The position numbers and the translations under genes are program-made. The notes beneath the pieces were generated by a model that ran no database searches, was not told where the DNA came from, and saw only the letters and a list, made by a program, of their open reading frames with translations. DNA of 64,000 nt from an uncultured Gemmatimonadales bacterium. Lineage in GTDB: Bacteria; Gemmatimonadota; Gemmatimonadetes; Longimicrobiales; RSA9. Positions within the stretch are counted from its first letter, which is position 1, and each line of letters starts with the position of its first letter. Where the stretch lies: assembly GCA_963798085.1 (NCBI GenBank), contig CAWCRS010000002.1:64001-128000 (forward strand), written 5' to 3'. Positions 26,652 through 46,911 of the stretch are shown in pieces.

Positions 26652-27543
26652 TCACTCCTTGTCCTTCTGCAGTGCCTGACGGATCTCGTCCAGGCGCTGT
26701 TTTTCCTCGTGGTTCACAGCCGGAAAGCGCAGGGGCAGTGCGCGCATCGTCTGGACGATGATGCGGGCTACGCTGAGACGCATGTAGGGTTTGGAGTCGG
26801 CGGGGATCGCGTACCAGGGGGCCCAGGCGCGGGACGTGGCGCACAGCGCCTCCTCGTAGGCGGACATGTAGTCGTCCCAGCGCGCCCGCTCCCGCACATC
26901 AGCGGCTTCGAATTTCCAGTTCTTCGAGGGTTCGTCGAGCCGGGCGAGAAAGCGCTTGCGCTGCTCCTTCCGTCCCACGTGAAGCCAGAACTTCAGGATG
27001 ACGATGCCGTTGCGCGCCAGGTGCAGCTCGTGATCGCGGATGGAGTCGAAGCGTTCTTCCCAGAGGCGCTGCACGTCGGTGTCGGGCAGGCGCTGGCGCT
27101 CGAGATACTCCGGGTGCACGCGCACGACGAGCACTTCCTCGTAGTAGCTGCGATTGAAGATGCCGATGCGTCCGCGCTCCGGCAGGCAGAGGCTGGTGCG
27201 CCAGAGGAAGTCGTGGTCCAGCTCCGCCGTGGATGGACTCTTGAAAGCGTAGACCTGACAGCCACTGGGATCGACGCCCGATCATCACCGCACGGATCGT
27301 GCTGTCCTTGCCGGCTGCATCCATCGCCTGGAAAACGAGCAGCAGCGCGTAGCGGTTGTCGGCAAAGAGCACGCGCTGCAGTCCGTCCAGCTCGCTGATG
27401 GCCTGCTGCAGCTGCTCGCGGCAGGCATCATTGTCGGGCGCATTGTGCGGCGGGGATGTGGCGGCGGCGGCAACGCGGAAGGAGCCGTCGAAGGGCACGA
27501 GCCAGGGGCTGGGCACGGGCTCGCGCGCGGGTCTGTATTTCAT
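26652..27543 (-). CDS. ppk2: Polyphosphate kinase 2 family (class III-like), frameshift near 27283
   Basis: [16 protein letters not shown]; second frame gives [56 protein letters not shown]. Confidence 0.9.
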
Positions 27544-27800
27544 GCGGACTCCGTTCGCCGGGGCGCGCGGTGGCGCGATAACAGGATATTTCCGATCATC
27601 CGTTGCACCGTTCGGGGGCGCCGCTTCCCATGGCAACGGGCCGGCCCGAGCACGGTATGGTGCTCGTGTGGCCGAGGACAAGGGCGGATGACCCTGGCTG
27701 GCCGACGCTTGTGCGGGTTCGCGCATTTGATGTAGCGTTCCTGATCTGATGCGACGACGCGCACCGCCTCGGTGCGTCGCTCTCCCACCGGGAGCAAGCC

Positions 27801-29306
27801 ATGCCCGGGATCTTCGTGTGCTACCGCCGTGAGGACAGCGCGGGCCACGCCGGTCGACTCTACGACCGACTGGCGCAGCATTTCGGACGGAACCGGGTGT
27901 TCCGCGATGTGGACCATCTGCGCGCGGGTCAGGATTTCGTGCAGGCCATCGCGCGCGCGGTGGGCGGTTGCGACGCGTGCGTCGTCGTCATTGGCCGTGA
28001 CTGGCTGCATAGCGTGGATGAACAGGGCCAGCGGCGTCTTGACCAGCCGGAGGATTTCGTGCGGCTGGAGCTGCAGAGCGCCCTGGAGCGGGGGATCCTC
28101 ACAGTTCCGGTGCTGGTCGACGGTGCGGCCATGGTGCGCGCCGCAGAAATGCCCGGGCCGTTGCGGGCACTGGCCAGGCGCCAGGCGGTGGAGCTGAGCG
28201 AAAGTCGCTGGGACTTCGACGTGCAGCATCTGCTGCGCGAGCTGAGTCCTGCGGTGCGACAACCGGTCGTGTCGTGGAAAAGAAGGATGGCGTGGGCTGC
28301 CGCAGCCGTGCTGGTGCTGGCGGCGGGCATCCTGGCCGCGCGGCCCTGGTGGACGCACAGCTGGTGAAGCGGGAGGACGCGGGCGATGCCCATGCGGCCG
28401 GAATGGCCGCGGAGTCGGCACAGGGAGGCCTTTCGCCCTCGGGCGACAGCGCCGCGCTGGTACTGGCCGGTCGAGACACAGTCGCCGCGCTGCCCGCGGA
28501 CAGCACGGCGCTCGACGGTGCGCGCGGCGCCGGACTCGAGCCATGCGCCGGTTCTGGTACGCGTGCCGGACCTGCGGGGCCGTCCGCTGGCGGATGCGCA
28601 GCGGGTCCTGACCGCGCGCGGCCTGCGCGTGGGCGATGTCACAGAGAGCGCGAATCACCAGTCGCTTCCCGGTTCGGTGTTCGCGCAGAGTCCCTCGCCT
28701 GACGCGAGCGTGGCGCCGGGCACGGTCGTGCAGCTCAGCGTGGAAGCGCTGGCCGCGCCTCGCCGGACCGTGCTCGCCCCGAACCTCGCCGGCATCAGCC
28801 TGAAAGCCGCCATGGACACGCTGAAGGCGCTCGGCCTGCGCGCGGGTCGCGTGCAGTACTTCACGCTGGGACAATACGCGCCGGGCACCGTGTACGGGCA
28901 GTCGGCGCGGCCCAACACGGAATTAGCGGTCGACACCGTGCTGAATCTGTGGGTGGAAGCCAAGCCGGAACGGGATGCCCTGCGCAGCGGGCGGCAGTTC
29001 CTGGCCGCCAGGCGGCTGCTGGATCTGGACTTCGACCGCGGCGCCGGCAGCGCCGGTGCAGACCTGGTGTTCGATCCACCGGCCGGATTGCGCGCGCTCA
29101 ACGGCGCCATGCTCATGGCGGCGGGAGGATACCCGTGGTACGGTCCCAAGGCCTGTTCCGCCATGAAAGCCTCAAGGCCAGTGCCGGCCACGGAGGGCAC
29201 GCAGCTCTGCGTGCGCACGAACGGCGGGCACTTCGCCATGATCCACGTACACAGCGCAGACCCGCAGGGGCGCGAGGTGGAGTTCAGCTTCACGACCTGG
29301 AAGTGA
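27801..29306 (+). CDS. TIR domain - TM - 2xPASTA protein (interrupted by an in-frame TGA at 28365, probably from compensating indels)
   Basis: [32 protein letters not shown] (TIR_2-like); [34 protein letters not shown] and APNLAG..GTVYGQS PASTA repeats. Confidence 0.75.
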
Positions 29307-29331: not shown

Positions 29332-30548
29332 TTAGCGCGGCCAGCCGGTCTGCGGCAGGCGCGGCGTGATCTTCAGCGCGTTCTGGAAATAGACCTTCTT
29401 CAGCACGCTGTCCGGCAGATCGATGCCGTAGAGCTTCCAGAACGCGTGATAGTCGCGGTAATAGTCGAAGTAGTCGTCCTTCGTCTCGAACACGCGCCAG
29501 TAGTACGGATACTCCTCCGGCTGGAACGAGTCCTTGCCGAAGAGGATGCGGTCCTGGTACTTGACGAAGAAGTCGTGCGCTGCGCGCGGCTGGCGGCCGA
29601 TGTCGTACAGCACCGCGCCGACCTCGGTGTAGACGTTGGGCATCGCGTCGAGCATCTTGCGCCAGGCGTGCCGAGGTCGTTGGCGTGCCAGCCCATGTGC
29701 GCGGCGACGAAGCGTCGTCTTCGGGATGCCGGCGGAACAGGTTGTCCCGCTCCGTCATCAGCTCCTCGAACGACGGGAAGCTGGTCCTGCGGGTAGCGGC
29801 GCTCGGCGAAGAGCGCGAGCTCGAGCCAGCGCTCGTTCGTGTAGTCGATCGGCTGGAAGAACTCCTGCGGATCGGCGGTGTGGATGAACACAGGGAGTGT
29901 TGAGCCGGGCGCACGCCTCCCAGATCGGATCGAGCTCGGGATCATCGATGCTGGAGGCGGGAGCCGTCGGGCTTGCGGATCGAGAGGCCGAAGCTCTTCG
30001 AGATCTCGCCCACGCCGACGGCACCGGCCGCGACATCGGCCTCGAGCTGCGCCACGGCTTTCTCGCGCCCAGCCCGGGCCCGACGTTGCGGAAATCGATG
30101 CCGGCGAGCGGGAACACGCGATCCTTCATCTTCGGCGAGGCGTGGATCACGGCCAGCGCGCGCTGCAGCCGGTCGCCTGACATGTTGTCCGCGGCGACCA
30201 TCAGCCGGACGTTCAGGCTGTCGAGGGCGGCGCCGAGGCTCGTCGAGACCTCCGCCGAGCCGAGCAGGCCCTGCGGATGTCCGTGGAAGTCGATGGCCGG
30301 ATACTTCGCCTGCGGCACGAGGTGCTCCGGCGTCGACGAGCGTCGAGTGCGGGCGATAGTCGAGAATGCTGGGCGGCGGCAGTGCTCGGGCGCCATGCAG
30401 TGTGCGCGGCCGGATCTCCGTCGTGCCCGGCGGGCACGATTCGCCCGGCCCTGATGGGCGTGCCCCGGCCACCGCGACCCTGTGCCGCTGCGGCATGGCA
30501 GAGGACGAACACGGCGGTCAGACCGGCAAAGCTGGCAAATCGACGCAT
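29332..30548 (-). CDS. Secreted amidohydrolase family protein (multiple frameshifts)
   Basis: Signal peptide MRRFASFAGLTAVF; IDFHGH, GVGEI.K, VFIHTADP, AAHMGW, DRILFGKD spread over several frames. Confidence 0.8.
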
Positions 30549-30774: not shown

Positions 30775-30812
30775 TCTTGTGGGTGGGAATCCACCTGCAG
30801 CCGGAGTACAGC

Positions 30813-32240
30813 ATGCGCTTGCGCAACGTGATCCTGCTCGGCCTGATCGCGATCTTCGGCTGCAAGTGCGAGGATGACGGGCCACCGACGACCTGTCCCG
30901 AGAACCCGCTGGTGTGTATTGCCCAGGCGCCCCCGATCTACGTCAATGTAGCGAGCGCATCCCATCAGCAGGCCTACATCGGCTCGGCGGTAACGGAGCC
31001 TCCCCGTATCCGTGTCACGAATGCCACTGGGGGCGAGGCCGGGTGCACTGTGATCTTCTCGGTCTATTCAGGCGGTGGGCTTCTGTTCGACGGGGGAGTT
31101 GCCCTCGAGGGATCGACTGCGAGCGTTCTCACGACGGATGCGAACGGATACGCAAACGTCCTGGCCTGGAAGGTGGGTCTGAATCCGGGCGCCAACGAAG
31201 TGAGGGTTTCCTCTCCCGTGTGTCTCAGCTCGATCGCGTCGATCATCACGATCCGCTCCAGCACGTTCACCGCCAATGCATTGCCGCTGGATGCGCAGGC
31301 CCTGGTCAAGGTGGAAGGCGATGGCCAGAGCGCAGCCGCGGGGGACACCACCGCAGTGCGGCCGCGCGTTCGTCTGACCGGCCAGCAGGGTCTGCCCGTG
31401 GCCAACCAGGCGATCCTGTTCCGGGTGGTGAGCGGCAACAGCACGATCGGCGGCCAGACGTCGGGCATCGTGATGACCGATGCCAATGGGTATGCCCGCT
31501 GTCCGCTGTGGCGCATGGGCCCGCAGCTGGCGGGCGCGGAAGTAGTCGAAGCCACGTTCGCGGGTCTGCCGGCCGTGCAATTCACTGTTAGCCCGCACGC
31601 CGGCGCACCCATGAGCATCGCAGCGGCGAGCGTGCCCGCGGGCGACGCCGGCGCGCCGGCCCAGCCGCTTCCGGAGGTGCTCGTGACGGATGCCTTTGCC
31701 AATCCCGTTGCCGACGCGGCCGTGCTGTTCGAGGTACTCGCGGGCGGCGGCACCGTCGCGGGCGGCACGCAGACATCGACTACCACGGACGCCGCCGGAA
31801 AGGCGAAGCCACTGAACTGGATCCTGGGCATGACACCGGGCCTCAACCAGCTGCGCGCCAGCGTGCTGCGCAACGGCCAGCCGGACACGGGCGTAAACGG
31901 CAATCCGGTCACCTTTGACGTAACGACGGTGTCTGGCGGCACCATTGTCGTGCAGGTGACCGTCTACGGCTTCCCGCGCGCCGGCGTCGCTGTGGTTGTG
32001 AGCGGAGCAGCTTTACGCACCGGCACGACCATCGCGGATGGCACGGCCACCTTCGCGGGTCTGCCGGCCGGCCAGTATACGGTGACCATCACACCACCGT
32101 CGGGCATATTCTTCAACCCGACGTCGCAGAACGTTTCGCTCAGCGTGGGGCAGACGCGCACGGTTGCCTTCGACGGCTTCGGCGCCAGCGCCGGCCGCGG
32201 GAAAGGGAACTCGCTGCAGGTACGGTCGCTCCTGCGCTGA
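30813..32240 (+). CDS. Ig-like repeat lipoprotein (Big/carboxypeptidase-regulatory-like domains)
   Basis: Lipobox-like IAIFGC, GDGQSA, TDANGYA repeats, Thr/Val/Gly-rich beta strands. Confidence 0.75.
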   Translation: MRLRNVILLGLIAIFGCKCEDDGPPTTCPENPLVCIAQAPPIYVNVASASHQQAYIGSAVTEPPRIRVTNATGGEAGCTVIFSVYSGGGLLFDGGVALEGSTASVLTTDANGYANVLAWKVGLNPGANEVRVSSPVCLSSIASIITIRSSTFTANALPLDAQALVKVEGDGQSAAAGDTTAVRPRVRLTGQQGLPVANQAILFRVVSGNSTIGGQTSGIVMTDANGYARCPLWRMGPQLAGAEVVEATFAGLPAVQFTVSPHAGAPMSIAAASVPAGDAGAPAQPLPEVLVTDAFANPVADAAVLFEVLAGGGTVAGGTQTSTTTDAAGKAKPLNWILGMTPGLNQLRASVLRNGQPDTGVNGNPVTFDVTTVSGGTIVVQVTVYGFPRAGVAVVVSGAALRTGTTIADGTATFAGLPAGQYTVTITPPSGIFFNPTSQNVSLSVGQTRTVAFDGFGASAGRGKGNSLQVRSLLR

Positions 32241-33379: not shown

Positions 33380-34301
33380 TCACGCGCCCGGGTTCATTTC
33401 GCCGTATCCGACAATGACGCAGCCGCCGGCAATGCGGATCTCCGAAATGGCGCCGCCCTTCAGGTCTGCTTCCATTTCAATGAGGCTCGGCCTGCCCATC
33501 TCGAAGCCCTGCTCGACCCGGCAGGTGAGTCCGGTCGCGGGCACTGCGGACTGCCGCCACAGATAGCCCGCGAGCGCGGCGACCGCCGCGCCCGCTGCCG
33601 GATCCTCGACAATGCCCATGGCCGGCGCAAACATGCGCGCCCGGATCATGGAACCCTCGAGTTCGACATCGCGTGTGATCACGTACACATGAGGGGACCA
33701 GGATGCCAGACAGCACTTCCCGCCAGACGGCCAGGTTGAGACTCACCTTTCCCAGAACGCCGCGGTCACGAACGGGGATGAACAGGAACGGCACGCCGCA
33801 GGAAGCCCGCAATGCGCTCCACTCACCATCGCCGATGGCCTCGACCGGAAGTGACAGCAATTGTGCCAGTACATTGAGGTCCGGCGGCTCCGCTCCGAAC
33901 TGCGGCAGGCTGGGAACGCGCAGTTGCGCTGACAACCGACCCGCTGCTTCCCGAATCACCACCGGCACCGGTCCCATGCCTTCCTCAAACACAATGTTTG
34001 CCTGACCGCCGGCCAGCGGCACGACGCCCACGTCCGCAAGCACACAGGCAGTGCCGACCGTCGGGTGTCCAGCGAATGGCAGTTCCGCCTGCGGCGTGAA
34101 AATGCGCAATTTCGCAGTGTGCTCCGGCGAGGCGGGCGCAAGAACGAAGACGGTCTCCGAGAAATTCAGCTCCCTGGCAATCTTCTGCATGACCGCAGGC
34201 GGCACCGTGTCCGCCCACGGAAAGACGGCAAGCTGATTGCCGCCGTATTGCGTGCTGGTGAACACGTCAGCCAGCACGAATCAATGCCGCCCGTCGCTCA
34301 T
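33380..34301 (-). CDS. PhzF family phenazine biosynthesis-like protein (stop codon near start, frameshift near 33700)
   Basis: [53 protein letters not shown]. Confidence 0.85.
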
Positions 34302-34476: not shown

Positions 34477-35799
34477 CTACATGTTCGCCGGATTGCTCGG
34501 GCAGGCGTTCTTGTGGCCCATCAGCTGGGCAGGCGCGAACATCTGCTTGCAATACGGGCACGCCTTCGTGCCACCCGTGGCTGCGGACCTGACCACCTTG
34601 TCCTTGTTCTCGTAGCGCGTGAGGGCAGAGCGCCAGTTGTGTCTGGCTTCCGTGCACAGACCGCGCAGCCGGGTCTTCAGCTGATCGGGAAAGGTCGGAC
34701 CGTACGAGACCTTCTGGTCGTCCTCACTCGGCAGAATGCGCGTCGAGATCACGTCGAAATCGTAGAAGGCGAGCGAGCCGCCGCCCGTGGGCGGCTGGTC
34801 CCAGAAGTGCTTGCGGCGGAGTTTCAGCTCCCCCAGGATCGCGTTCACGTTGATCCTGTCGACAGCGGCCTCCGGAAACGGGTTCTTGCCGCCGGTCTCG
34901 CGCTGCCATTTTTCGGTGTTGAAGGCGTGGACGTTGTCGACGCGGACCACGTACACGCAGATCTCCGTCTCCACATGGTCGACCACGCCGTTCTTGCGCA
35001 CAGCCCTGACTTTGAGCCAGTGCGCGGCCGCAGCCTGGTCATCCTGCGGCTTCCAGTCCTTCAGCGGCTTCGCACCCAGAGGGAACAACGAAGCGTCGGA
35101 GAGCAGCGGGTAGGGCAGGATCTCGGCCAGTTCCTTGGCGACGCTGACCACCGTGTGCAGGCAGTTGTCCCGGTTGATGCCTTTGCGCAGGAAGAGAGAA
35201 TTGGCGTAGACCTCGAGTCCCAGCGGATTCCAGGGTTGATCAAGGCCGAATTTCGCGTAGACGGGATCCTTGCTCGAGCGCGCCCGCGCGTGGAAGCCGC
35301 CCTGCTTGACGAGCGTCTCGTAGTTGCGGCTATCGGCGCGGAAGCCGAGCTTGACCAGCTGTTTGGCGCCTTCCGTGCCGTATTCCATCGTTTTCAGAAG
35401 AATGGCGGCGCCATCGGCTGCACGGTCCACGCGTACGCCGGCGCCGCCCGTGCTGATGGGTCCGCTCAGCGGCACTCGCTTGAAACCCAGTACGAGCAGG
35501 GTGGTCAGCACCGTGCGTTTCTTCTCCGCCGGCATGCTGTCCAACCCCGCCACGGGGCGGAACCGTGAACCGTCGGCCTGCAGCACGGCGAAGAAGGCGT
35601 CGCACAGCCTCCCCTTGTCGCCGTCCGTCAGCTCGGGCGCCTGCCGGGCTTCCTCCCAGAGGTAGTTGAACCAGAAGCCGAAACTCCGCTTGACGGGATC
35701 GCCGAACGGCGAGACGACGTTCGCGATCGACGGCCACCGGCCGGCCCGCTGGTTGGGCGCGGTCCTGTTGACGGAGGGAGGCGTGTACATGCGGCGCAT
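34477..35799 (-). CDS. Putative ADP-ribosyltransferase (cholera/pertussis toxin-like R-S-E fold) with C-terminal C2HC zinc finger
   Basis: FRADSR..GGF, VVSVA, CVYVVRV..HAFN..NPFPEAAV..I...ILG; C-terminal CPYC-x11-H-x3-C. Confidence 0.6.
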   Translation of the reverse strand: MRRMYTPPSVNRTAPNQRAGRWPSIANVVSPFGDPVKRSFGFWFNYLWEEARQAPELTDGDKGRLCDAFFAVLQADGSRFRPVAGLDSMPAEKKRTVLTTLLVLGFKRVPLSGPISTGGAGVRVDRAADGAAILLKTMEYGTEGAKQLVKLGFRADSRNYETLVKQGGFHARARSSKDPVYAKFGLDQPWNPLGLEVYANSLFLRKGINRDNCLHTVVSVAKELAEILPYPLLSDASLFPLGAKPLKDWKPQDDQAAAAHWLKVRAVRKNGVVDHVETEICVYVVRVDNVHAFNTEKWQRETGGKNPFPEAAVDRINVNAILGELKLRRKHFWDQPPTGGGSLAFYDFDVISTRILPSEDDQKVSYGPTFPDQLKTRLRGLCTEARHNWRSALTRYENKDKVVRSAATGGTKACPYCKQMFAPAQLMGHKNACPSNPANM

Positions 35800-35994: not shown

Positions 35995-36068
35995 TGCGCC
36001 CGGCGCGATTCGAACGCGCGACCTTCGGCTCCGGAGGCCGACGCTCTATCCAACTGAGCTACGGGCGC
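35995..36068 (-). tRNA. tRNA-Arg (anticodon CCG); CCA not encoded
   Basis: GCGCCCGTAGCTCAGTTGGATAGAGCGTCGGCCT-CCG-GAGCCGAAGGTCGCGCGTTCGAATCGCGCCGGGCGCA forms a cloverleaf. Confidence 0.97.
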
Positions 36069-36079
36069 TGCAAAAAAAA

Positions 36080-36470
36080 CGGGAAGCGAATAAGCCGGGT
36101 TCTGTCTCCCTCGCGGGAGGCGGATCATTTCTCTGGGACCGCGGTTGCCCGACGGCCTCGTGCAGCCTACCCGGGACTGCTCGATCATTGCTGACCGACC
36201 GGCGCGGGCCGCGCCTCGTCCCCTATTTGGCCTTGCTCCGGGTGGGGCTTGCCGTGCCACTCCCGTTACCGGGAGCGCGGTGGTCTCTTACACCACCATT
36301 TCACCCTTGCCTGTGCCCTCGCGGGCCATCGGCGGTGTGCTTTCTGTTGCGCTGTCCGTCGCCTCGCGACGCCCGGCTGTTAGCCGGCACCCTGCCCTGT
36401 GGAGCCCGGACTTTCCTCCGCTCCCGATCCCTCCGTGGACCGTGGCGCGGCGATCCGCACTCGCTTCCCG
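36080..36470 (-). ncRNA. rnpB: RNase P RNA (bacterial type A)
   Basis: GAGGAAAGTCCGGGCTCC, GGGTGAAATGGTGGTGTAAGAGAC, GAGCAAGGCCAAATAG, ACAGAACCCGGCTTA; terminal P1 pairing CGGGAAGCGA/TCGCTTCCCG. Confidence 0.97.
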
Positions 36471-36643
36471 AACATCGTCTGCACCTGCCCGCGCGCGCTC
36501 TCCGGAATTGCAGACGGGTCAGGCTGTGACACATCGCCCCGCGGCGCTCCGTCCGGATGCTCCGGGCGGGACCGGCGGGGCAATGTTGTTGCGAAACGAA
36601 TGCTACCGGCCGGGTGACGATCCGTCAACCCGAAGCAGTGTCG

Positions 36644-38977: not shown

Positions 38978-41905
38978 ATGACGGCTTCCTGGCTGCTGGC
39001 ATTCGCAACGTTGTTGCCTCAGGGCGGCGCTGGTGACACGGCCAGGGCGGTGGTGCATCACGCGCAGGCCGCGGTGGAGGGTGACAGCGTGGCTGTGGTG
39101 GAGCGCCGCTGGCGCCGTGAGGCGGGGGTGGTGCGGAGCGCGCGTGCTGCGCTTCTCGGTCTGGCGACCCTGGCGCAACTGACCTACCAGCCGGCTCGAG
39201 CCGAGTCGCTGTACGTCTCGCTGATCCGGGCCCGGGATGACGACGCCATTGCGCGCGAGTCGAGAGTGGGCCAGGCGCACAGTCGCGTGGCATTGGGCGA
39301 TCTGCAGGCCGGCGATTCGCTGTTCGCGCTGGCCGCGAACCGTGCGCGGGCGGCGGGCGACAGCAGCCGCGAGGCGGAGGCGCTCCTGTCGGGCAGTCTG
39401 ACGCGGCTGCGTGTTGCGGACGCCGTGCGCGCCCTGCGCCTCGTCGACCTTGCAGACTCGGTGTTACCAGCCAGGGATGACGAAGGCGAGGTGCAGGCCC
39501 GTTGCACGCGTGCCTGGATCGATGCGACACGCAGTGTGGCCAGCGCCCGGCTGGCAGCGGACTCGGGCGCCGCGGATGCGCACCGTCTGGGTTTCCGCCG
39601 CATGGAAGCGTTCTGCAACCATGTGGTGGCTTCGGTCATCGACCAGCTGGGCTACACGGACAGTGCGCGCCAGCACCTGCGGCTGGTCGAGCGCCTGCAG
39701 CGCGAGACGCATGATCGCAGCGCCCTCGCCGCCACGCTGCAGTGGCGGGGTTACATGTCGTTCAACACCGGGCATTACGCCGAGGCGAAGCGCGATCTGT
39801 ACGCCGCGATCGAGGAAGCGGTCGCGTCCGGCAACCGCTCGGCGCTGGCGTGGTCGTGGCTGTCGCTGGCACAGGTATCGCTCGCGCTTTCCGACCTGCC
39901 CACAGCGACGACGTACACCGAGCGTGCGGATTCACTGCTGGAAGCCCAGGGCGATCTCTGGGGCCGCACCGCCGCCGCCGCCGTGCGTGCGCGTATTGCG
40001 CGTCACACGGGTGACCTGGAGCTGGCACGCGCTGCCGCACTCCGCTTTCGTACGGGTGCGGAAGCGCTGGGCGGGAGCTGGCGCGTCACCGCGCTCTCGG
40101 TGCTGGGCGCAGTCGCCGAATCCGAAGGCAATGCCGGCCAGGCGAAGATTCTGCTGGACAGTGCCCTGGTGCTGGCGCAGCGTGATCACCTGCTCGGCAT
40201 TCAGTTGAGCCTGCTGGCCGACCTGTCGCGCGTGGAGCTGAAGCTGGGCGACCCGCGCGCGTCGCTGCGCCGGCTGTCCGGGCTGCCGCCGTTTCACTCG
40301 TCGCCCGCCTACCGTTACTCGCAACGCATCAGCTCGGCGGCTGCCCTGCTCGCACTGCACGATCCTGCCGCAGCGGAAGCCGAGGTGCGCTCGGCGCTCG
40401 ATTCGCTGGAGGCATGGCGCGCCGGACTGGATGATGCCGATCTGCGCGTGGTCGCCTTCTCTCTCACGGATGATCGACCGGCGGAGTCGGACCTCGCGAG
40501 TGTGCTCGTGGGTCTGGTGGATGCGGGCCGCGTCGAGGCCGCGTTCGAGTTTGCGGAGCGTCGTCGTGCTCGCCTGCTGCTGGACCGGCTGGCGTTGCTG
40601 GCCGACACAGGGGCTGCGCCCGGCACAGGCCAGCACATGGATGCGGCGGCGCTGCGGCCCGACGCGCTGCGCCGATCCCTGCCCGACGCGCACACCGCCA
40701 TGCTCGAATTCGCGACCGGTGATGCGACGTCGCCGGTCAGCGCCTACGTGGTGACGCAGACCGCCGTGGCCGCCGTGGTGCTGCCGCCGCTGACGGCGGT
40801 GACCGATGCGATAACACGCCTGTTATCGCTTGCGGAAGGCGGCAGTGCGGTGGCTTCGCCGGCGGAGCAGCTGGGTGCGTCGCTGCTGGCAAAGGTGCTG
40901 CCGCTGCTGCCGGACTCGATCACACGACTCGTCATCATTGCCGACCGCGGACTGCACGATGTGCCCTGGGAGCTGCTGCAGCTGCCGGATGGACGCGCGC
41001 TGCTCGATCGCTACGTCATCAGCACCTCGCCGTCGGCGTCGGTCGCGGCCAGGCTGTGGCAGCGGCCGCGCGCAATGCAGGCGGGCGGCGTGCTGGCGTT
41101 CGGCGCGCCGCGTTTCCCGAGCCTGCAGGCAGGCAGCGCGCAGAGTGCGCCGGTACGTGCAGCGTTCCTGGAGAACGGCGGGCTGCCAGGCTTGCGCTAT
41201 TCGGCGGCGGAGGCGAAGCGCCTGCGCACGCGGGCCGTTGCCGGCGAAGTTCGGCTCTCGGGCAATGCCAGCGAGGCCTACCTCAAGCATGCCGACCTGC
41301 GCAGCGTCAGCGTGCTGCATCTGGCCACACACGCGCTGGTCAATGATCGCAGTGCCGAGCGCGCCGCACTGGCTCTGGCGCCTGGCGACGGCGAAGACGG
41401 TTTCCTGACACCACCCGAGCTGGCCGCGCTGCGTCTGCCGGTGGATCTCGTGGTGCTCTCTGCCTGTCGCACGGCGAGGGGACCGGTGGCGGGGAGCGAA
41501 GGCGTAACGGGCCTCTCGACAGCGGCATTGCAGGCGGGCGCCCGGGCGGTACTCGCTTCCACATGGTCCGTGAGCGACGAAGCGAGCGCCGCGTTCATCG
41601 AGCGCTTCTACCATCAGGCCGCGGCCGGGCTCGACGCGGCCGCCGCCCTGACCGAAGCCAAGCGCGCGGCGCGTGACGCGGGCCTGCCGCCGCGCGACTG
41701 GGCAGCCTTCAAGCTCATCGGTGATCCCTTCGTGAAATTGCCGCTGCACGAGCCGCCGCCCGCGTTGGCACTGCGCACGAAGCTGGCGCTGGCCGGCGGG
41801 TTGCTGCTGCTGACCCTCGCTCTGGCTCAGGGTGTCAGGCGCAGTCGCCGTAAGGTCGACACCGCGCGCGTACCATCCTCGCGCACCGCTTCGACCCGCC
41901 ACTGA
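38978..41905 (+). CDS. TPR-like + CHAT (caspase-like) domain protein with C-terminal TM
   Basis: LHDVPWELL, ASEAYLK, VLHLATHA, DGFLT, LVVLSACRT, GARAVLASTWSVSD, DWAAF. Confidence 0.9.
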   Translation: MTASWLLAFATLLPQGGAGDTARAVVHHAQAAVEGDSVAVVERRWRREAGVVRSARAALLGLATLAQLTYQPARAESLYVSLIRARDDDAIARESRVGQAHSRVALGDLQAGDSLFALAANRARAAGDSSREAEALLSGSLTRLRVADAVRALRLVDLADSVLPARDDEGEVQARCTRAWIDATRSVASARLAADSGAADAHRLGFRRMEAFCNHVVASVIDQLGYTDSARQHLRLVERLQRETHDRSALAATLQWRGYMSFNTGHYAEAKRDLYAAIEEAVASGNRSALAWSWLSLAQVSLALSDLPTATTYTERADSLLEAQGDLWGRTAAAAVRARIARHTGDLELARAAALRFRTGAEALGGSWRVTALSVLGAVAESEGNAGQAKILLDSALVLAQRDHLLGIQLSLLADLSRVELKLGDPRASLRRLSGLPPFHSSPAYRYSQRISSAAALLALHDPAAAEAEVRSALDSLEAWRAGLDDADLRVVAFSLTDDRPAESDLASVLVGLVDAGRVEAAFEFAERRRARLLLDRLALLADTGAAPGTGQHMDAAALRPDALRRSLPDAHTAMLEFATGDATSPVSAYVVTQTAVAAVVLPPLTAVTDAITRLLSLAEGGSAVASPAEQLGASLLAKVLPLLPDSITRLVIIADRGLHDVPWELLQLPDGRALLDRYVISTSPSASVAARLWQRPRAMQAGGVLAFGAPRFPSLQAGSAQSAPVRAAFLENGGLPGLRYSAAEAKRLRTRAVAGEVRLSGNASEAYLKHADLRSVSVLHLATHALVNDRSAERAALALAPGDGEDGFLTPPELAALRLPVDLVVLSACRTARGPVAGSEGVTGLSTAALQAGARAVLASTWSVSDEASAAFIERFYHQAAAGLDAAAALTEAKRAARDAGLPPRDWAAFKLIGDPFVKLPLHEPPPALALRTKLALAGGLLLLTLALAQGVRRSRRKVDTARVPSSRTASTRH

Positions 41906-42456
41906 CGGGCGCCGAGCGCGTGCTCGAGACGCATGGGCACGATGTCTAACGCGGTGTCAGGCGATTGCTGCGTCAGCAGCACGGCGCCGGTGCTGTCCAG
42001 CAGCTCGAGGCGATAGAGGCGGGCGCCGGCCGTGGCATGCCACACGAAGCGCGCGGATTCCGCGGCGGACGTCGCAGCGCCAGCTTCCGGCGTGATCAGG
42101 GCAATGGCCCCGCCGGCGGCGCCGCGCATGGCCGGCGCCGGCTCGGGAGTCATGCGCCAGACGACCCACGTGCCCAGCAGCAGGACCAGCGACGCCGCGA
42201 TGGCCAGCGGCAGCCCCAGCCGGCGGATCGATTCGCCATGGCTCGCCTGCTCGGTTGCACGCAGCAACTCGAACTCGCTGGCGCAGCGGTTACAGCGCAT
42301 GACGTGGTCCAGCGTGCGCATGCGCTCGCCTTCATCGCCCGTGCGGTCAATGAGGGCGGTGATGGCCTCGGCGGGCGGGCATTCCTCCGGCGTGTCCGCA
42401 GCGCGGCGGGCGTAGCGGGCGCGCAATTCTGCGTCGCCTGGCTGTTCATGCGTCAT
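41827..42456 (-). CDS. Zinc-binding membrane anti-sigma factor with extracytoplasmic beta domain
   Basis: ECP..DHVMRCNRC, TM LAIAASLVLLLGTWVVW, then FVWH..YRLEL..WRVEA. Confidence 0.75.
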   Translation of the reverse strand: MTHEQPGDAELRARYARRAADTPEECPPAEAITALIDRTGDEGERMRTLDHVMRCNRCASEFELLRATEQASHGESIRRLGLPLAIAASLVLLLGTWVVWRMTPEPAPAMRGAAGGAIALITPEAGAATSAAESARFVWHATAGARLYRLELLDSTGAVLLTQQSPDTALDIVPMRLEHALGARQWRVEAVREDGTRAVSTLRRLRLTP

Positions 42457-42973
42457 GGGCCCCCTCGGGCGCGAGCTGCGCGCGCAGGTCCGCGAGTCCG
42501 CGATAGAGCAGGTTGCGCGTCTTGGGCTCACTCCAGCCGAACAGCTGCCCGATCTCGCGCTGCGTGTAGCCGGCGAGGTACATGCGGACCACGCCTCTCC
42601 TGGATTCCGCCAGCGTGCCGACGGCGCGCTCGAGAGTAGCGGCGGCTTCGTCGCGTTCCACCGGATCCGGCTGCGTCTTCGCCATGGCTTCCTCCGGCGC
42701 TGCGTCCAGGTGGATTGCGGCATGCTCGCCGCGGACCCGCCGCCGGCGCATCCGGTCGATGAGCACGGCGCGAACCACTCTGTAGACATAGGACGCAGGG
42801 AGGCGGGAAATCCTCTCGGCTTCGGGAACGGCCTGCCATACGCGGATGCGGACCTGCTGCATGATCTCGTCGAGATCGGCATGGCTGGCCGCGTGGCCGT
42901 GGGCCAGCCGCAGAATGCGGCTCTGGCAGCGGTGCAGCAGTGCATCCAGCTCGCGTGACAGCGCGTCAGTCAT
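42446..42973 (-). CDS. ECF sigma-70 factor
   Basis: DLDEIMQQVRIRVW, SYVYRV..IDRMRRR, GYTQREIGQLFGWSEPKTRNLLYRG. Confidence 0.88.
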   Translation of the reverse strand: MTDALSRELDALLHRCQSRILRLAHGHAASHADLDEIMQQVRIRVWQAVPEAERISRLPASYVYRVVRAVLIDRMRRRRVRGEHAAIHLDAAPEEAMAKTQPDPVERDEAAATLERAVGTLAESRRGVVRMYLAGYTQREIGQLFGWSEPKTRNLLYRGLADLRAQLAPEGAHDA

Positions 42974-43031
42974 GCCGGCAAACGTAGCCGTCTGCCCACG
43001 GACGTGTGAAGCAGGGGACAAATCCGTAGAG

Positions 43032-43058
43032 TGAGACGCGCGAGGTCCGCCGTGCGTC
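43032..43058 (+). promoter_or_regulatory. Putative ECF promoter (TGAGA-N16-TGCGTC)
   Basis: CGTC-type -10 element; shared with the upstream region of 30813. Confidence 0.4.
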
Positions 43059-43092
43059 CTTTCATGGCGGAGGTCCCATCGGAGGCGGCTTC

Positions 43093-44481
43093 ATGCGGAA
43101 TCGCAATGTCGTCCTGCTTGCACTCATGCTGCTGGGAAGCTGCAAGTGCAACGAGGACAGCACGAGCATCGACCCGTGCACTTTCACTGATACCTGTCCG
43201 AGCGACAGCCCGGTCGTTGTCGCAGCTGCCAGCGCCACACTGCAATCCGTGCCCTCCGGCGGCGCCGTGCCGGATCCTCCCGCCATACAGCTGTTGCGTG
43301 ACGGTCAGCCGTTCGTCAATCCGCTGTGCCTGGTGACCTTCAGTGTGACCGGTGGAGGCGGGCAGCTCTACAGTCTGACGGCCCCGGGAGGCGCCACATC
43401 CGCGCTGGTGCTGATGACCACATCGGTGGCGCGCGTCGACCGGTGGGTGCTGGGCACGGCCACAGGACAGAACGCCGTCCGCGCCACGGTCGGCTGCTCC
43501 GGGTTCTACAACGTTTCGTATCAGTCGCGGGATTTCGTCGCCAACGGCGTAACCGAGCAGGCCGGGTTCATCACGAAAGTGGCGGGCGACAATCAGAGCG
43601 CAGAGGTGGGTTCGCCGCTGATCGATCCGCTTCGTGTCCGCGTCGACGTGCGACCCGGTGTGCCGCTGCCCCTCGCCAGCGTCGCCTTCCGCGTCGCATC
43701 GGGCGGCGGCAACCTGAACGGCCCGACCACGGTATTGGCCACGACCGACGCCTACGGCTTCGCCAATTCACCGATCTGGACGCTGGGCAGTGCAGCCGGT
43801 GTGCAGACCACCGAAGCGTCCGTGACGAACCTGCCCGCCGTGACGTTCACCGCCCATGCGCTGACGCTGACTGCGGCCCAGGTCAGCGCGTCGAGCGTAC
43901 CCGCCGGCGCCGCCGGCCAGCTCGCCAGCCCCGCTCCGGCCGTTCTCGTGCAGGACCGGCTGGGCAACCCGATCGCGAACGCCAGTGTGCGCTTCGCCGT
44001 CACGGCGGGCAATGGCAGCACCAGCGGCAACGGGGTGCTTTCTGGCGCCAACGGCATTGCGATCGGCGATTGGCGCCTGGGCAGTCCGGGCGTGAACACC
44101 CTTACAGGTACAGTCATCAGAGGCGGCGTGGCGGATCCCAACGTGGCCGGCAATCCGGTCACATTCACCGTAAACGTCGTAGCATCGAGCGGAATCCGCG
44201 TGATCGTGACGATCTACAGCGAGCCGGTGTCGGGCGTGACTGCTACCATCAGCGGCCCTTCCTCCGCCAGCGGCACGACAGACAGTAACGGCACCGTGCT
44301 GTTCGCGCCGCTCAATCCGGGCACCTACTCGGTGACGATCGTTCCGCCCGCATTCACCTATTTCGATCCCACCACGCAGCAGGTGGTGGTCGTCAACGGC
44401 CAGACCACGGACGTCGTGTTCGAAGGATATGGGGCGTTGGCCATGGCCGGCGCGTGGCGAGGCGCCGGTCGGAACTGGTAG
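43093..44481 (+). CDS. Ig-like repeat lipoprotein, paralogue of 30813-32240
   Basis: LLGSC lipobox, GDNQSA, TDAYGFA, GNPVTF, and the same C-terminal domain. Confidence 0.78.
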   Translation: MRNRNVVLLALMLLGSCKCNEDSTSIDPCTFTDTCPSDSPVVVAAASATLQSVPSGGAVPDPPAIQLLRDGQPFVNPLCLVTFSVTGGGGQLYSLTAPGGATSALVLMTTSVARVDRWVLGTATGQNAVRATVGCSGFYNVSYQSRDFVANGVTEQAGFITKVAGDNQSAEVGSPLIDPLRVRVDVRPGVPLPLASVAFRVASGGGNLNGPTTVLATTDAYGFANSPIWTLGSAAGVQTTEASVTNLPAVTFTAHALTLTAAQVSASSVPAGAAGQLASPAPAVLVQDRLGNPIANASVRFAVTAGNGSTSGNGVLSGANGIAIGDWRLGSPGVNTLTGTVIRGGVADPNVAGNPVTFTVNVVASSGIRVIVTIYSEPVSGVTATISGPSSASGTTDSNGTVLFAPLNPGTYSVTIVPPAFTYFDPTTQQVVVVNGQTTDVVFEGYGALAMAGAWRGAGRNW

Positions 44482-44496
44482 TGCGGATACGCTCGC

Positions 44497-45675
44497 TCAG
44501 AACGCGCTGAAGCCGGTCAGGTCCTGGCCCAGGATGAGACCGTGCACGTCGTGCGTGCCTTCGTAGGTGTAGACGGACTCGAGGTTGGCCATGTGGCGCA
44601 TGGCAGAATACTCGACCAGGATGCCGTTGGCGCCCAGCAGGCGGCGGGCTTCGCGTGCCACGTCGCAGGCCATCGAGCAGTTGGCGCGCTTCGCGAGTGA
44701 GACCTGCTGCGGGCGCACCTTCTTCTGATCCTTGAGCCGGCCCAGCTGCAGGCAGAGCAGCTGACCCTGTGTTATGGAGGTGAGCATTTCCGCGAGCCGC
44801 ACCTGCTGGATCTGCTTGGCGCCAATGGGCTCGTCGAACATGACGCGCTCCTTCGAGTAGCGGAGCGCTTCATCGAAGCAGGCCATGGCCGCGCCCACCG
44901 CACCCCACGCGATGCCATACCTTGCCTGTGTCAGGCACATCAGCGGACTCTTGAGGCCCTTCGTTTCCGGTAACAGCGCGTCATCAGCCACGCGCACGTC
45001 CTGCAGGGCCAGCTCACTGGTATCCGATGCCAGCAGCGACAGCTTGCCCTTCTGGTCCCGCGCCGTGAAGCCGGGTGTGTCCGTGGGAACGATGAAGCCG
45101 CGGATGGACTCGACATCGCTCAGCTCGCCGGTCTTGGCCCAGATGATCGCGATGTTCGCCATGGAGCCGTTCGTGATCCACATCTTGGCGCCATTCAGCA
45201 CCCAGCCGTCCGCGGTCTGCTTCGCAGTAGTAATCATGCCGGCGGGGTTGGAGCCGTAATCCGGCTCCGTCAGGCCGAAGCAGCCGATCACCTCGCCAGC
45301 CGCCATGCGCGGCAGCCACTTCTGCTTCTGCGCCGTGCTGCCGAACGCGAAGATGGGATACATGCAGAGCGCGCCCTGCACCGAAGCGAAGGAACGGATG
45401 CCGGAGTCGCCGCGCTCCAGCTCCTGCATGATCAGGCCGTAGGCGACATTGTTCAGTCCGGCACAGCCATACTCTTCGGGCAGATTCGCGCCGAGCATGC
45501 CCAGCTCCGCCATCTGCGGTATCAGCTGCTTCGGAAAATGCCGCGCGATGTACGCTTCCTGGATCACCGGCAACAGGTTGTCATCCACCCAGCTGCGCAC
45601 GGTGTCACGCACCATGCGTTCATCCTCGCCGAGCAGCGAATCCGTATCGAAGTAGTCTATGCCCTGGAAGGCCAT
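44497..45675 (-). CDS. Acyl-CoA dehydrogenase (glutaryl-CoA dehydrogenase-like)
   Basis: QELERGDSGIRS, GCFGLTEPDYGSNP, NGAKMWITN, LGANGI, NLESVYTYEGTHDVH. Confidence 0.9.
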   Translation of the reverse strand: MAFQGIDYFDTDSLLGEDERMVRDTVRSWVDDNLLPVIQEAYIARHFPKQLIPQMAELGMLGANLPEEYGCAGLNNVAYGLIMQELERGDSGIRSFASVQGALCMYPIFAFGSTAQKQKWLPRMAAGEVIGCFGLTEPDYGSNPAGMITTAKQTADGWVLNGAKMWITNGSMANIAIIWAKTGELSDVESIRGFIVPTDTPGFTARDQKGKLSLLASDTSELALQDVRVADDALLPETKGLKSPLMCLTQARYGIAWGAVGAAMACFDEALRYSKERVMFDEPIGAKQIQQVRLAEMLTSITQGQLLCLQLGRLKDQKKVRPQQVSLAKRANCSMACDVAREARRLLGANGILVEYSAMRHMANLESVYTYEGTHDVHGLILGQDLTGFSAF

Positions 45676-45887
45676 GGTTGTGGCGCTCGTCCTGGTTCTG
45701 GTTGGCGCGGAAGGTAGTCGGCGGCAGGGAATCTGAAAAGCGTTTCCGGGGCTGGGGCTCGGGCTGGTTGCTGGGCAACGACACCCGAGAGAATCGGAGT
45801 TCCATCCGTTCCGGAGCCGCCGGCAACGCAGTTCCCGGTCGAGGCGTGTTCCGCTGGACGGCCGGCAATGCACGGGACGCCGGTCTG

Positions 45888-46911
45888 CTACCCTAACCGC
45901 CTGATAATGGCAGCGGCGAAGTCGGCGGTGCCACTGCGGCCGCCCAGATCCGGCGTCAGCGTGTCGTGCACCTCGAGGGTCTGCTGTGTGGCGCGACGCA
46001 CGCGCTCCGCCGCTTCGCCCTGCCCCACGTGTTCCAGCATCATGCAGGCGGCCAGGATCATGGCCGTGGGGTTGGCGATGCCCCTGCCGGCGAGGTCGGG
46101 CGCGGAGCCGTGCACCGGCTCGAACATGGCCGCTTCCCGTCCGATGTTGCCGCCCGGCGCCATCCCCAGGCCACCCACGAGGCCGGCCATCTCGATCGCT
46201 CAGGATGTCACCGAACATGTTCTCCATCACCAGCACATCGAACTGCCAGGGATCGAGCACGAGCTGCATGGCCGTGGCATCAATGATCCGGTCGTCGAAG
46301 GCGACGCGGTCTGCGTACTCCTGCGCCACACGCCGGCCCTCGTCGAGGAACAGGCCCTGCGTGTACTTCAGGATATTGGCCTTGTGCGCGAGGGTCACTT
46401 TGCGCCGGCCGTGCGTCACTGCGTACTCGAAGGCATAACGCACAATGCGCTCCGCGCCGAAGCGCGTGATGATCATGACGGACTCGGCCGCGGCACGCGG
46501 ATCATCGCCCATGCCGATGTAGTGCTCGACGCCCACGTACAGGCCTTCGGTGTTCTCGCGAATGAGCACCAGGTCGATGTCATCGTAGCGGCCGCCCGGC
46601 ATGAGTGTGCGCGCCGGACGCACGTTGGCGTAGAGGTCGAATTCCTTGCGCAGTGTCACGTTGATGCTGCGGAAGCCGACGCCCACGGGTGTAGTGAGCG
46701 GCCCCTTCAGCGCGACGCGCGTACGGCGGATCGAGTCCAGAGTCGCGTCCGGCAGCGGTGTGTGCAGCGCATCGACTGCCGCCATGCCCGCCAGCTGGTA
46801 GTCCCATTGCAGCCGAGCGCCCGCTGCCTCGAGGACGCGCAGCGTTGCAGCCGTGATGTCCGGTCCAATGCCGTCGCCCGGAATCAGGGTCACGGCGGCG
46901 CCAGTGGTCAT
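45888..46911 (-). CDS. Isocitrate/isopropylmalate dehydrogenase family (NAD-IDH-like), frameshift near 46195
   Basis: [59 protein letters not shown] in a second frame. Confidence 0.9.

Follow-up and report, generated by a model that had tools for sequence, protein, structure and literature searches.

What would an enzyme resembling the catalytic part of cholera toxin be doing in an uncultured environmental bacterium, where it comes with no B subunit, no immunity gene and no signal peptide? The gene that raises this question lies in a 64,000-nucleotide stretch of DNA (the ‘window’, i.e., positions 64,001 to 128,000 of contig CAWCRS010000002.1, assembly GCA_963798085.1, from an uncultured Gemmatimonadales bacterium). 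Its product, of 440 amino acids (aa), is designated here P0001, the genome of the window G000, and the contig on which the window lies C2. That P0001 has the cholera/pertussis-clade fold of the ‘R-S-E’ ADP-ribosyltransferases (ARTs), with the arginine, serine and glutamate of that signature conserved, is shown computationally, that is, by way of a predicted structure. The protein belongs to a previously unnamed, family-level variant of this known clade, and with it comes a hypothesis of delivery, one to which we give about an even chance of being right: P0001 would be an orphan, non-fused cargo enzyme of a contractile injection system, most likely a type VI secretion system (T6SS), and one that has no immunity gene.

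Fold, active site and family

The AlphaFold2 model of P0001, based on a 42-sequence alignment, has a predicted local distance difference test score (pLDDT) of 90.7 and a predicted template-modelling score (pTM) of 0.81. In this model R154 stands on strand 145-155, S219 on 218-221 and E310 on 310-313, i.e., in canonical order. The first-pass annotation had proposed R-S-E clade membership, with AlphaFold and Foldseek as the check, and that check, now run, returns the split beta-sheet ART fold in all of the nine best structural rows. These rows, from a VIA comparison of the model with 48,161 solved chains, are R-S-E toxins without exception (Z 5.5-7.1): TreX at 7.1, EcPltA at 6.6, Scabin at 6.5, pertussis toxin S1 at 6.1 and 5.5, heat-labile enterotoxin (LT) at 5.8 and 5.5, and MTX and CARDS at 5.5. 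Nucleic-acid ARTs were matched as well, i.e., pierisin (Z 5.1) and DarT (Z 4.1). Foldseek gives probabilities of up to 0.98 for pertussis toxin, cholera toxin and LT; its BPIFA1/SPLUNC rows were rejected (template-modelling score of about 0.2, root-mean-square deviation (rmsd) above 10). Counting against the assignment, the whole-model Z values all are below 8, which alone could reflect a common arrangement, and Foldseek E-values exceed 1e-3. The fold call nevertheless stands because a single enzyme clade fills the top rows.

Relatives were collected in two steps, a single-sequence search finding 43 among 8000 candidates scored, and a profile from 42 relatives then reaching 267 clusters at 50% identity, 221 of these with E < 1e-10. 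Conservation is reported here for an alignment, with fragments and long fusions left out, of 119 full-length members, most of which are 17-35% identical to the query. The motifs read earlier from the sequence (LGF-R154-ADS-R158..GGF, VV-S219-VA, and CVYVVRV..HAFNTE..NPFP-E310-AAV..I..ILG) do occur where they had been placed. Conservation of R154, S219 and E310 in homologues had been named beforehand as one point on which their reading could fall, and these residues are found in 119, 119 and 118 of the 119 members, respectively. As three residues are thereby invariant or nearly so across mostly 17-35%-identical homologues, the motif is more than chance. Likewise present in all 119 are P192, R205, D211 and P231, with W190 in 118, T295 in 116, R158 in 115 and N212 in 113; the first motif is RxDxR in 80 of the members and Rx[DE]xR in 114.

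A profile of the 119 members, compared with PDB sequences, has cholera toxin A as its best match (E=0.005), with RxDxR..GG aligned. Below significance in that same alignment, an R-x-H-x-G strand of the family pairs with RVHFG of cholera toxin. The gapless HMMER alignment, which is a point against the catalytic assignment, sets E310 one residue past cholera toxin E112. We read E310 as the probable catalytic Glu all the same, with a turn that would be one residue shorter than in cholera toxin: nearly every member has this Glu, and after it come a variable residue, then G or A, and then a hydrophobic residue. Around S219 the context is [VIA]-[VI]-S-[VI], with STS or STT in none of the 119 members. 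From that Ser to the Glu is 91 aa in P0001 (family median 93), versus the 51 from S61 to E112 of cholera toxin that a passage in PMC8120803 gives, and the insertion previously claimed to follow the S motif is seen, i.e., as a distance some 40 residues longer.

It is at the acceptor-reading loop that the family departs furthest from textbook form. That loop, the ADP-ribosylating turn-turn (ARTT) loop, follows the rule aromatic-x-x-[Q/E]-x-E in the relevant text of PMC7827354. In the query F-P-E had been noted in place of Q/E-x-E, and replacement proves to be family-wide, as F/Y/C-x-E: at position -2 relative to E310 the 118 members with that Glu have F (91), Y (15), C (10) or A (2), and Q or E in no case. 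With Q or E never present at -2, the acceptor probably is not to be read as Arg (from E-x-E) nor as Asn or guanine (from Q-x-E). Scabin, ScARP and pierisin share with P0001 the fold, a small and then a hydrophobic residue after the Glu, and a basic protein. They read guanine N2, however, via W-x-x-Q-x-E, as described in a portion of PMC7827354, and the Q at -2 is what all 118 family members lack.

Cholera toxin A1, LT, pertussis S1, EcPltA and CARDS resemble P0001 in RxDxR..GG and in strand order (VIA Z 5.5-6.6). Unlike these toxins, P0001 lacks a signal peptide, a B-subunit gene, STS and a Q/E at -2, and it possesses instead the 40-aa insertion, a helical N-terminal domain, and environmental hosts. 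The Tox-ART-RSE family, as set out in parts of PMC3482391, has the same RxDxR, S and E signature and has T6SSs among its delivery routes; where it has [DN]xN, the P0001 family has [DN]-T, this being T295, and its described partners (Imm41, an ADP-ribosylglycohydrolase, Rhs/HINT fusions) were not seen with the P0001 family. The family is not an AB5 toxin, not an effector-immunity pair and, judging by motif, not a Scabin-type guanine ART.

No library model covers the ART core in Pfam nor, using the 42-member alignment, in NCBIfam, PHROG or PADLOC. Core matches similarly were absent from a single-sequence PDB search, from a comparison of an A1 profile with the PDB, and from a viral fold library, while ESM Atlas scores all were below 0.9. 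Nor did a text search of the literature find the family, a kind of search that cannot catch unnamed families; the supplements of PMC8213781 and PMC3482391 could list members. Titled members all are hypothetical proteins, from Reyranella, Vineibacter, Bryobacteraceae, Acidobacteriaceae and uncultured Gemmatimonas, with further ones from Myxococcales- and Spirochaetaceae-titled bins, an Actinomycetales bin, Symploca, Verrucomicrobiae and a gammaproteobacterium. Cultured carriers in the records are Reyranella sp. CPCC 100927 and Vineibacter terrae. The family is rare, occurring in 3/301, 8/201 and 1/211 genomes of three samples. One homologue is 75% identical even though housekeeping proteins of its genome are just 38-45% identical to their best G000 matches, which points to lateral spread. 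No relative was found in IMG/VR, phage or plasmid records, which thus give no sign of carriage by phages or plasmids but are no proof of absence.

Some members carry peculiarities of their own. Interrupted or partial copies (G445:C366:12728-13652, G321:C22, L011 and L027) suggest turnover or assembly errors. Four proteins (P0085, P0110, P0122 and P0175, two of them titled Symploca) have the same tag of some 25 aa at their C-termini, starting from LLNGxK..FD, which possibly serves in delivery or loading. In P0152, residues 1-325 are a low-complexity N-terminal extension, with ‘FDRM’ repeated, which lies ahead of the ART unit and has no Pfam or Atlas assignment.

Association with contractile injection systems

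The sheath gene product TssC, a T6SS component, turned up in 21 of the 22 genomes that have a family member, with E < 1e-130 in 20 of these; the remaining, weak one (G011) has TssF as well. Three of the 22 (G011, G321, G445) have partial or interrupted copies of the ART gene and were counted, and cyanobacterial and verrucomicrobial members fall outside of this sample. Within the phylum of G000 itself, TssC is present in 30/301 genomes (10%) versus 3/3 carriers (Fisher p 9e-4, or 0.009 without G000). In the Bryobacteraceae-titled family of G005 the background is 139/201 (69%) versus 8/8 carriers (Fisher p 0.049, or 0.071 without the seed genome), and in the family of G007 it is 24/211 (11%), where G007 and two more carriers titled Terracidiphilus or Acidobacteriaceae all are positive. 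Pvc16, a marker of extracellular contractile injection systems (eCISs), is found in 10/22 carriers, with backgrounds of 18/301 and 59/201.

In one instance the association is physical. At locus L035 the homologue sits between divergent tssK and tssB, 67 nt ahead of the tssB start, in a cluster in which tssK, tssB and tssC are Pfam-confirmed, and in which hcp, tagJ, tssA, tssE-G and clpV were read by eye from translations. Beside this same cluster is a second unexplained gene (L035:419-1255), which has no Pfam match and, in its second half, an FWGHG motif, one that we take to recall caspase-like cysteine proteases. Two other homologues (P0159 and P0170, among 19 long or odd ones scanned) are N-terminal eCIS_core/DUF4157 fusions, and DUF4157, according to part of PMC8213781, sits N-terminal to toxin domains in eCISs.

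G000 has both kinds of system. Its T6SS (C4:50000-110000) comprises tssM, K, L, B and C, hcp, tagJ, tssA, E, F and G, and clpV, along with four vgrG, PAAR, three DUF2169 genes, Rhs, and kinase, phosphatase and FHA genes; a second ORF (open reading frame) at this locus matches both the TssB and TssC models. Its eCIS operon (C1:80800-104400) is complete, with sheath, tube, Pvc16, AAA ATPase, eCIS_core protein, baseplate and DUF6519. TagJ together with PpkA-PppA-FHA denotes a group 3 T6SS, a group in which the pertinent section of PMC6653060 includes both the anti-amoeba system of Xanthomonas citri and a predicted antibacterial one. Because group 3 spans anti-amoeba and predicted antibacterial systems, this subtype leaves the target of the G000 system undecided. 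No paper on effectors of the T6SS or eCIS of the Bryobacteraceae-titled family turned up in a targeted literature search.

Absence of a signal peptide, as claimed previously, holds: the best 10-residue hydropathy over aa 1-40 of P0001 is 1.04, and there is no lipobox. Across the family, a hydrophobic N-terminal stretch (hydropathy reaching 2.0) occurs in 2/119 members versus 39/139 background ORFs. Proline-rich N-termini (Pro at 20% or more of aa 1-30), by comparison, are seen in 22/119 members versus 3/139 background ORFs.

A dedicated partner gene is missing as well. All-versus-all comparison of 400 ORFs (at least 45 aa) from 49 loci, which are about 40 once near-identical copies are discounted and many of which are contigs of 1-4 kb, revealed no recurring partner, with immediate neighbours common only to near-identical loci. 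The neighbours annotated (99 ORFs in one set, and 61 in another, the latter part of 102 listed) serve for the most part in housekeeping or transport and include no B subunit, antitoxin, defence gene or ADP-ribosylhydrolase. The first-pass annotation had seen no B-subunit or antitoxin neighbour at the P0001 locus, and this observation now extends to all 49 loci, so far as recurring neighbours are concerned.

Various points weigh against an injected effector. The Fisher p values overstate the link, as kinship and genome size are uncorrected and as two of the carriers (G079 and G170) represent one T6SS-rich genus, and comparison with the 69% background is only borderline. G013, an Actinomycetales bin, has eCIS genes but no T6SS. 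In G000 the ART gene (C2) is on a different contig from either the T6SS (C4) or the eCIS (C1), and a T6SS gene is among the annotated neighbours at just 1/49 loci, many of these being short contigs. No fusion to VgrG, PAAR or Rhs was found, in a weak search limited to proteins of 957-2730 aa, nor was any known recruitment domain (VgrG, PAAR, Rhs, MIX, FIX) found in Pfam or NCBIfam; cargo effectors often are without recruitment motifs, as stated in a section of PMC13577199. No loading leader of P0001 was found in other G000 proteins, and neither the upstream regions of 31 distinct loci nor tssK-tssB showed a common promoter or sigma-54 motif.

Candidate roles

Secretion, activity, route, target and the finger’s role all are inferred here. 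P0001 would be made in the cytoplasm as a stand-alone protein lacking a signal peptide and would be loaded non-covalently onto the tube or spike of the T6SS, with eCISs perhaps serving some distant members, these routes being suggested by the co-occurrence, the single in-cluster copy and the two DUF4157 fusions. Within a target cell, and going by what is understood of related enzymes, NAD would be bound via R154 and S219, with E310 either transferring ADP-ribose or hydrolysing NAD. The aromatic residue at -2, along with a patch consisting of W190, P192, R205, D211 and N212, may form a family-specific acceptor site. The zinc finger of P0001, in turn, would serve one subclade as an added module for targeting. 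The weakest step, essentially a coin toss, is that the producer lacks the target, which would then probably lie in protists or fungi, or instead that the enzyme needs a target-cell activator. From the missing immunity gene it would follow that acceptor or activator presumably exists in the target only, hence protists or fungi; against this, bacteria-killing eCIS toxins also often lack immunity genes, as noted in part of PMC8213781.

Might the same enzyme be loaded into the genome’s eCIS rather than into its T6SS? G000 has the complete operon, two distant homologues are DUF4157 fusions, a third homologue (in G079) is 14 kb from Pvc16, G013 has an eCIS only, and immunity genes are missing for most of the validated eCIS toxins, going by a portion of PMC8213781. 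Those two fusions indeed match the DUF4157-linker-toxin layout there described. In a quick tree, the branches of which are long, they fall far from the P0001 clade, however; between the G079 homologue and its operon stand some dozen unrelated genes; and the eCIS marker is found in 10/22 carriers versus 21/22 for TssC. P0001 itself, unlike those toxins, has no DUF4157 and lies outside of the eCIS operon, and the ART in the table of PMC8213781 as available (EAT1) is SpvB-like. We regard this variant as unlikely. Distinctly unlikely, in our estimation, is a role in the producer along the lines of the first-pass annotation, which had suggested a cytoplasmic ART or NADase, possibly anti-phage, for which the finger would sense or target; the enzyme would then be a phage-triggered or stress toxin that its N-domain or insertion keeps silent. 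An absent signal peptide, a solo gene, patchy distribution, the basic pI (isoelectric point) of 9.6, and the nucleic-acid ARTs found among structural matches (Scabin, pierisin, DarT) all would fit. PADLOC, however, has no match for P0001 and one marginal match among 42 relatives, and most members are missing the finger. The suggested check of homologue neighbourhoods for defence islands came back empty, in that none of the neighbours annotated is a defence gene. Were the role purely cytoplasmic or anti-phage, moreover, the T6SS co-occurrence, the in-cluster copy and the DUF4157 fusions would go unexplained, and the tie of the family to T6SS/eCIS injection systems speaks against such a role.

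Association with T6SSs need not imply injection, as P0001 could be a non-toxic accessory regulator acting on the producer’s own T6SS, of which it would ADP-ribosylate one component or one regulator. This would account for co-occurrence, for the operon-head position ahead of tssB in L035, and for the missing immunity gene, and DraT is, as mentioned in a passage of PMC8120803, a precedent for a regulatory R-S-E ART. Against this, only 8/139 and 3/30 T6SS-positive genomes carry the gene; effectors are what typically show high divergence, variable tails and fusions to DUF4157; and an ADP-ribosylhydrolase partner is not among the annotated neighbours. We find such regulation quite improbable. Much the same low expectation attaches to a T6SS effector that, like Tre1 or TreX, is antibacterial, and for which immunity would be unlinked or would be provided by a general ADP-ribosylhydrolase or by folding upon delivery. 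The top structural match, TreX of Xenorhabdus bovienii (PDB 8S2M; rmsd 2.9 over 120/128 residues, 15% identity), is after all an antibacterial T6SS ART that shares clade and T6SS context with P0001, and the T6SS ARTs that an available list in PMC13617354 contains all have bacterial targets. Yet TreX is a small, Rhs-encased C-terminal domain with R-S-ExE, TriX as immunity protein, FtsZ as target and TrxA as chaperone, in the account given in part of PMC11606950, and P0001 is instead a 440-aa stand-alone gene product that has F-P-E and additional domains but lacks a partner gene; E-x-E of the TreX kind never occurs in the family. Both TreX and TreThr are, per portions of PMC11606950 and PMC13617354, Rhs tips that have cognate immunity proteins of their own, and P0001 has neither feature. 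Antibacterial cargo effectors, furthermore, usually are bicistronic with an immunity gene, in the wording of a section of PMC6653060, and no such gene recurs across the 49 loci.

A broader claim may be built upon the T6SS cargo reading, namely that of a widespread, immunity-free family that is injected via T6SS or eCIS into protists or fungi, that ADP-ribosylates a new class of acceptor by way of a rebuilt active site (aromatic-x-E together with the invariant W-H-P/R/D-N patch), and that has a swappable finger steering one subclade. We consider this conjunction doubtful. Were it nevertheless true, the T6SSs that are common in little-studied lineages (Acidobacteriota, Gemmatimonas-like, and others) would gain their first family of effectors and, with it, a function, and the cholera/LT enzymes would have a sister branch in the environment. 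The acceptor rule rests on the Q/E-x-E loop (as presented in part of PMC7827354), so a whole family without that residue should differ in its chemistry. A stand-alone, immunity-free T6SS ART would, as well, widen the class of T6SS ARTs, and the family would provide a handle on what abundant soil bacteria inject, with TssC encoded by 139/201 genomes in one Acidobacteriota family.

The gene, its accessory domains and its surroundings

The 440-aa ORF is a genuine coding sequence and one that is normal for its genome. Its GC content at third codon positions (GC3) is 0.86, with overall GC (0.648) near the low end for the genome, and its codon adaptation index (CAI), at 0.689, exceeds that of 69% of 507 background ORFs, i.e., codon adaptation is typical of the genome. 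Five listed contig pieces (164-283 nt) from a soil-metagenome run match parts of the ORF, each gaplessly and with 0-2 substitutions; no RNA data set is listed as containing the gene. A public protein collection has the same gene called from its second ATG (35790), as a protein of 437 aa (P0002). Features of the gene and of its upstream flank are collected below.

Features of the ART gene and its upstream flank (positions are those of the window)
Feature	Position	Strand	Description
Whole gene	34477..35799	minus	440 aa, 49 kDa, pI 9.6; member of the unnamed R-S-E ART family
N-terminal leader, aa 1-14	35758..35799	minus	Short, Pro-containing, low-confidence in the model; neither Sec nor lipoprotein signal
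Helical N-domain, aa 15-110	35470..35757	minus	Family-specific; W43, Y46, E50, G105 and F106 conserved
Cholera/pertussis-type ART core, aa 137-355	34735..35391	minus	W190-[HN]-P192, R205, D211-N212, P231, T295; insertion of about 40 aa after the Ser strand
R154	35338..35340	minus	Predicted NAD-binding Arg of strand 1; RxDxR with D156 and R158; aligned to cholera toxin R7
S219	35143..35145	minus	Ser of strand 2; V-S-V context, not S-T-S
E310	34870..34872	minus	Probable catalytic Glu, strand 5; preceded by F308-P309
C-terminal helices, aa 359-407	34579..34725	minus	Follow the ART core; predicted from the model
C2HC zinc finger, C414-x2-C417-x11-H429-x3-C433	34501..34560	minus	Pfam zf-C2HC_2 E=0.008, below cut-off; accessory
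tRNA-Arg(CCG)	35995..36068	minus	195 nt upstream of the ART gene; context only
RNase P RNA (rnpB)	36075..36471	minus	Directly upstream of tRNA-Arg(CCG); context only

Folded alone, the first ~100 residues yield a bundle of helices (pLDDT 84.5). This isolated N-domain found generic helical bundles only, the best being a designed protein (Z 6.6), with no Foldseek match having E < 1. The idea that it could be a portable delivery module was rejected, as 14/14 matches are full-length and family-sized, with six new ones all having the ART core.

The zinc finger, which had been postulated to serve as sensor or targeting module, is indeed of the C2HC type and where it had been placed. It is present, as C2HC or C2H2, in 12/119 aligned members and in 28/42 close relatives, and in a sister clade it is replaced by a helical tail, according to a quick tree that has long branches and was used solely for the finger’s distribution. 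Since most of the family lacks a finger, a role as core sensor is unlikely; judged by this distribution the finger is a subclade-restricted accessory. Its spacing presumably recalls that of ubiquitin-binding UBZ4 fingers, but the UBZ4 Asp is absent.

The tRNA-Arg gene does lie on the same strand at the short distance described earlier, and that adjacency looks incidental, as a tRNA gene adjoins the homologue at 0/13 loci (one has a tRNA-Met about 2.8 kb off). The rnpB gene before it had gone unmentioned in the first-pass annotation. In 3/5 genomes of the same family that lack the ART gene the rnpB-tRNA pair is kept, with different genes behind the tRNA. Integration at the tRNA was rejected given these differing genes, typical codon use, and no att-like repeat of the tRNA 3' end on the contig. 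Downstream of the ART gene is a PhzF-like gene.

Elsewhere in the window, a TIR_2-domain ORF and the PASTA-repeat ORF that follows and overlaps it (27801-29306, plus strand) perhaps represent one frameshifted, membrane-anchored protein. A cluster at 38978-44481 consists of a CHAT-domain protein, a sigma factor of the extracytoplasmic function (ECF) type and an Ig-like protein, with a similar Ig-like gene at 30777-32240. Housekeeping genes at 26652-27726, 29332-30496, 33380-34277 and 44497-46911 look frameshift-split or fused, which probably reflects assembly errors; the frameshifted-looking genes are PPK2, an amidohydrolase-like gene, the PhzF-like gene and dehydrogenases, and the ART ORF is intact.

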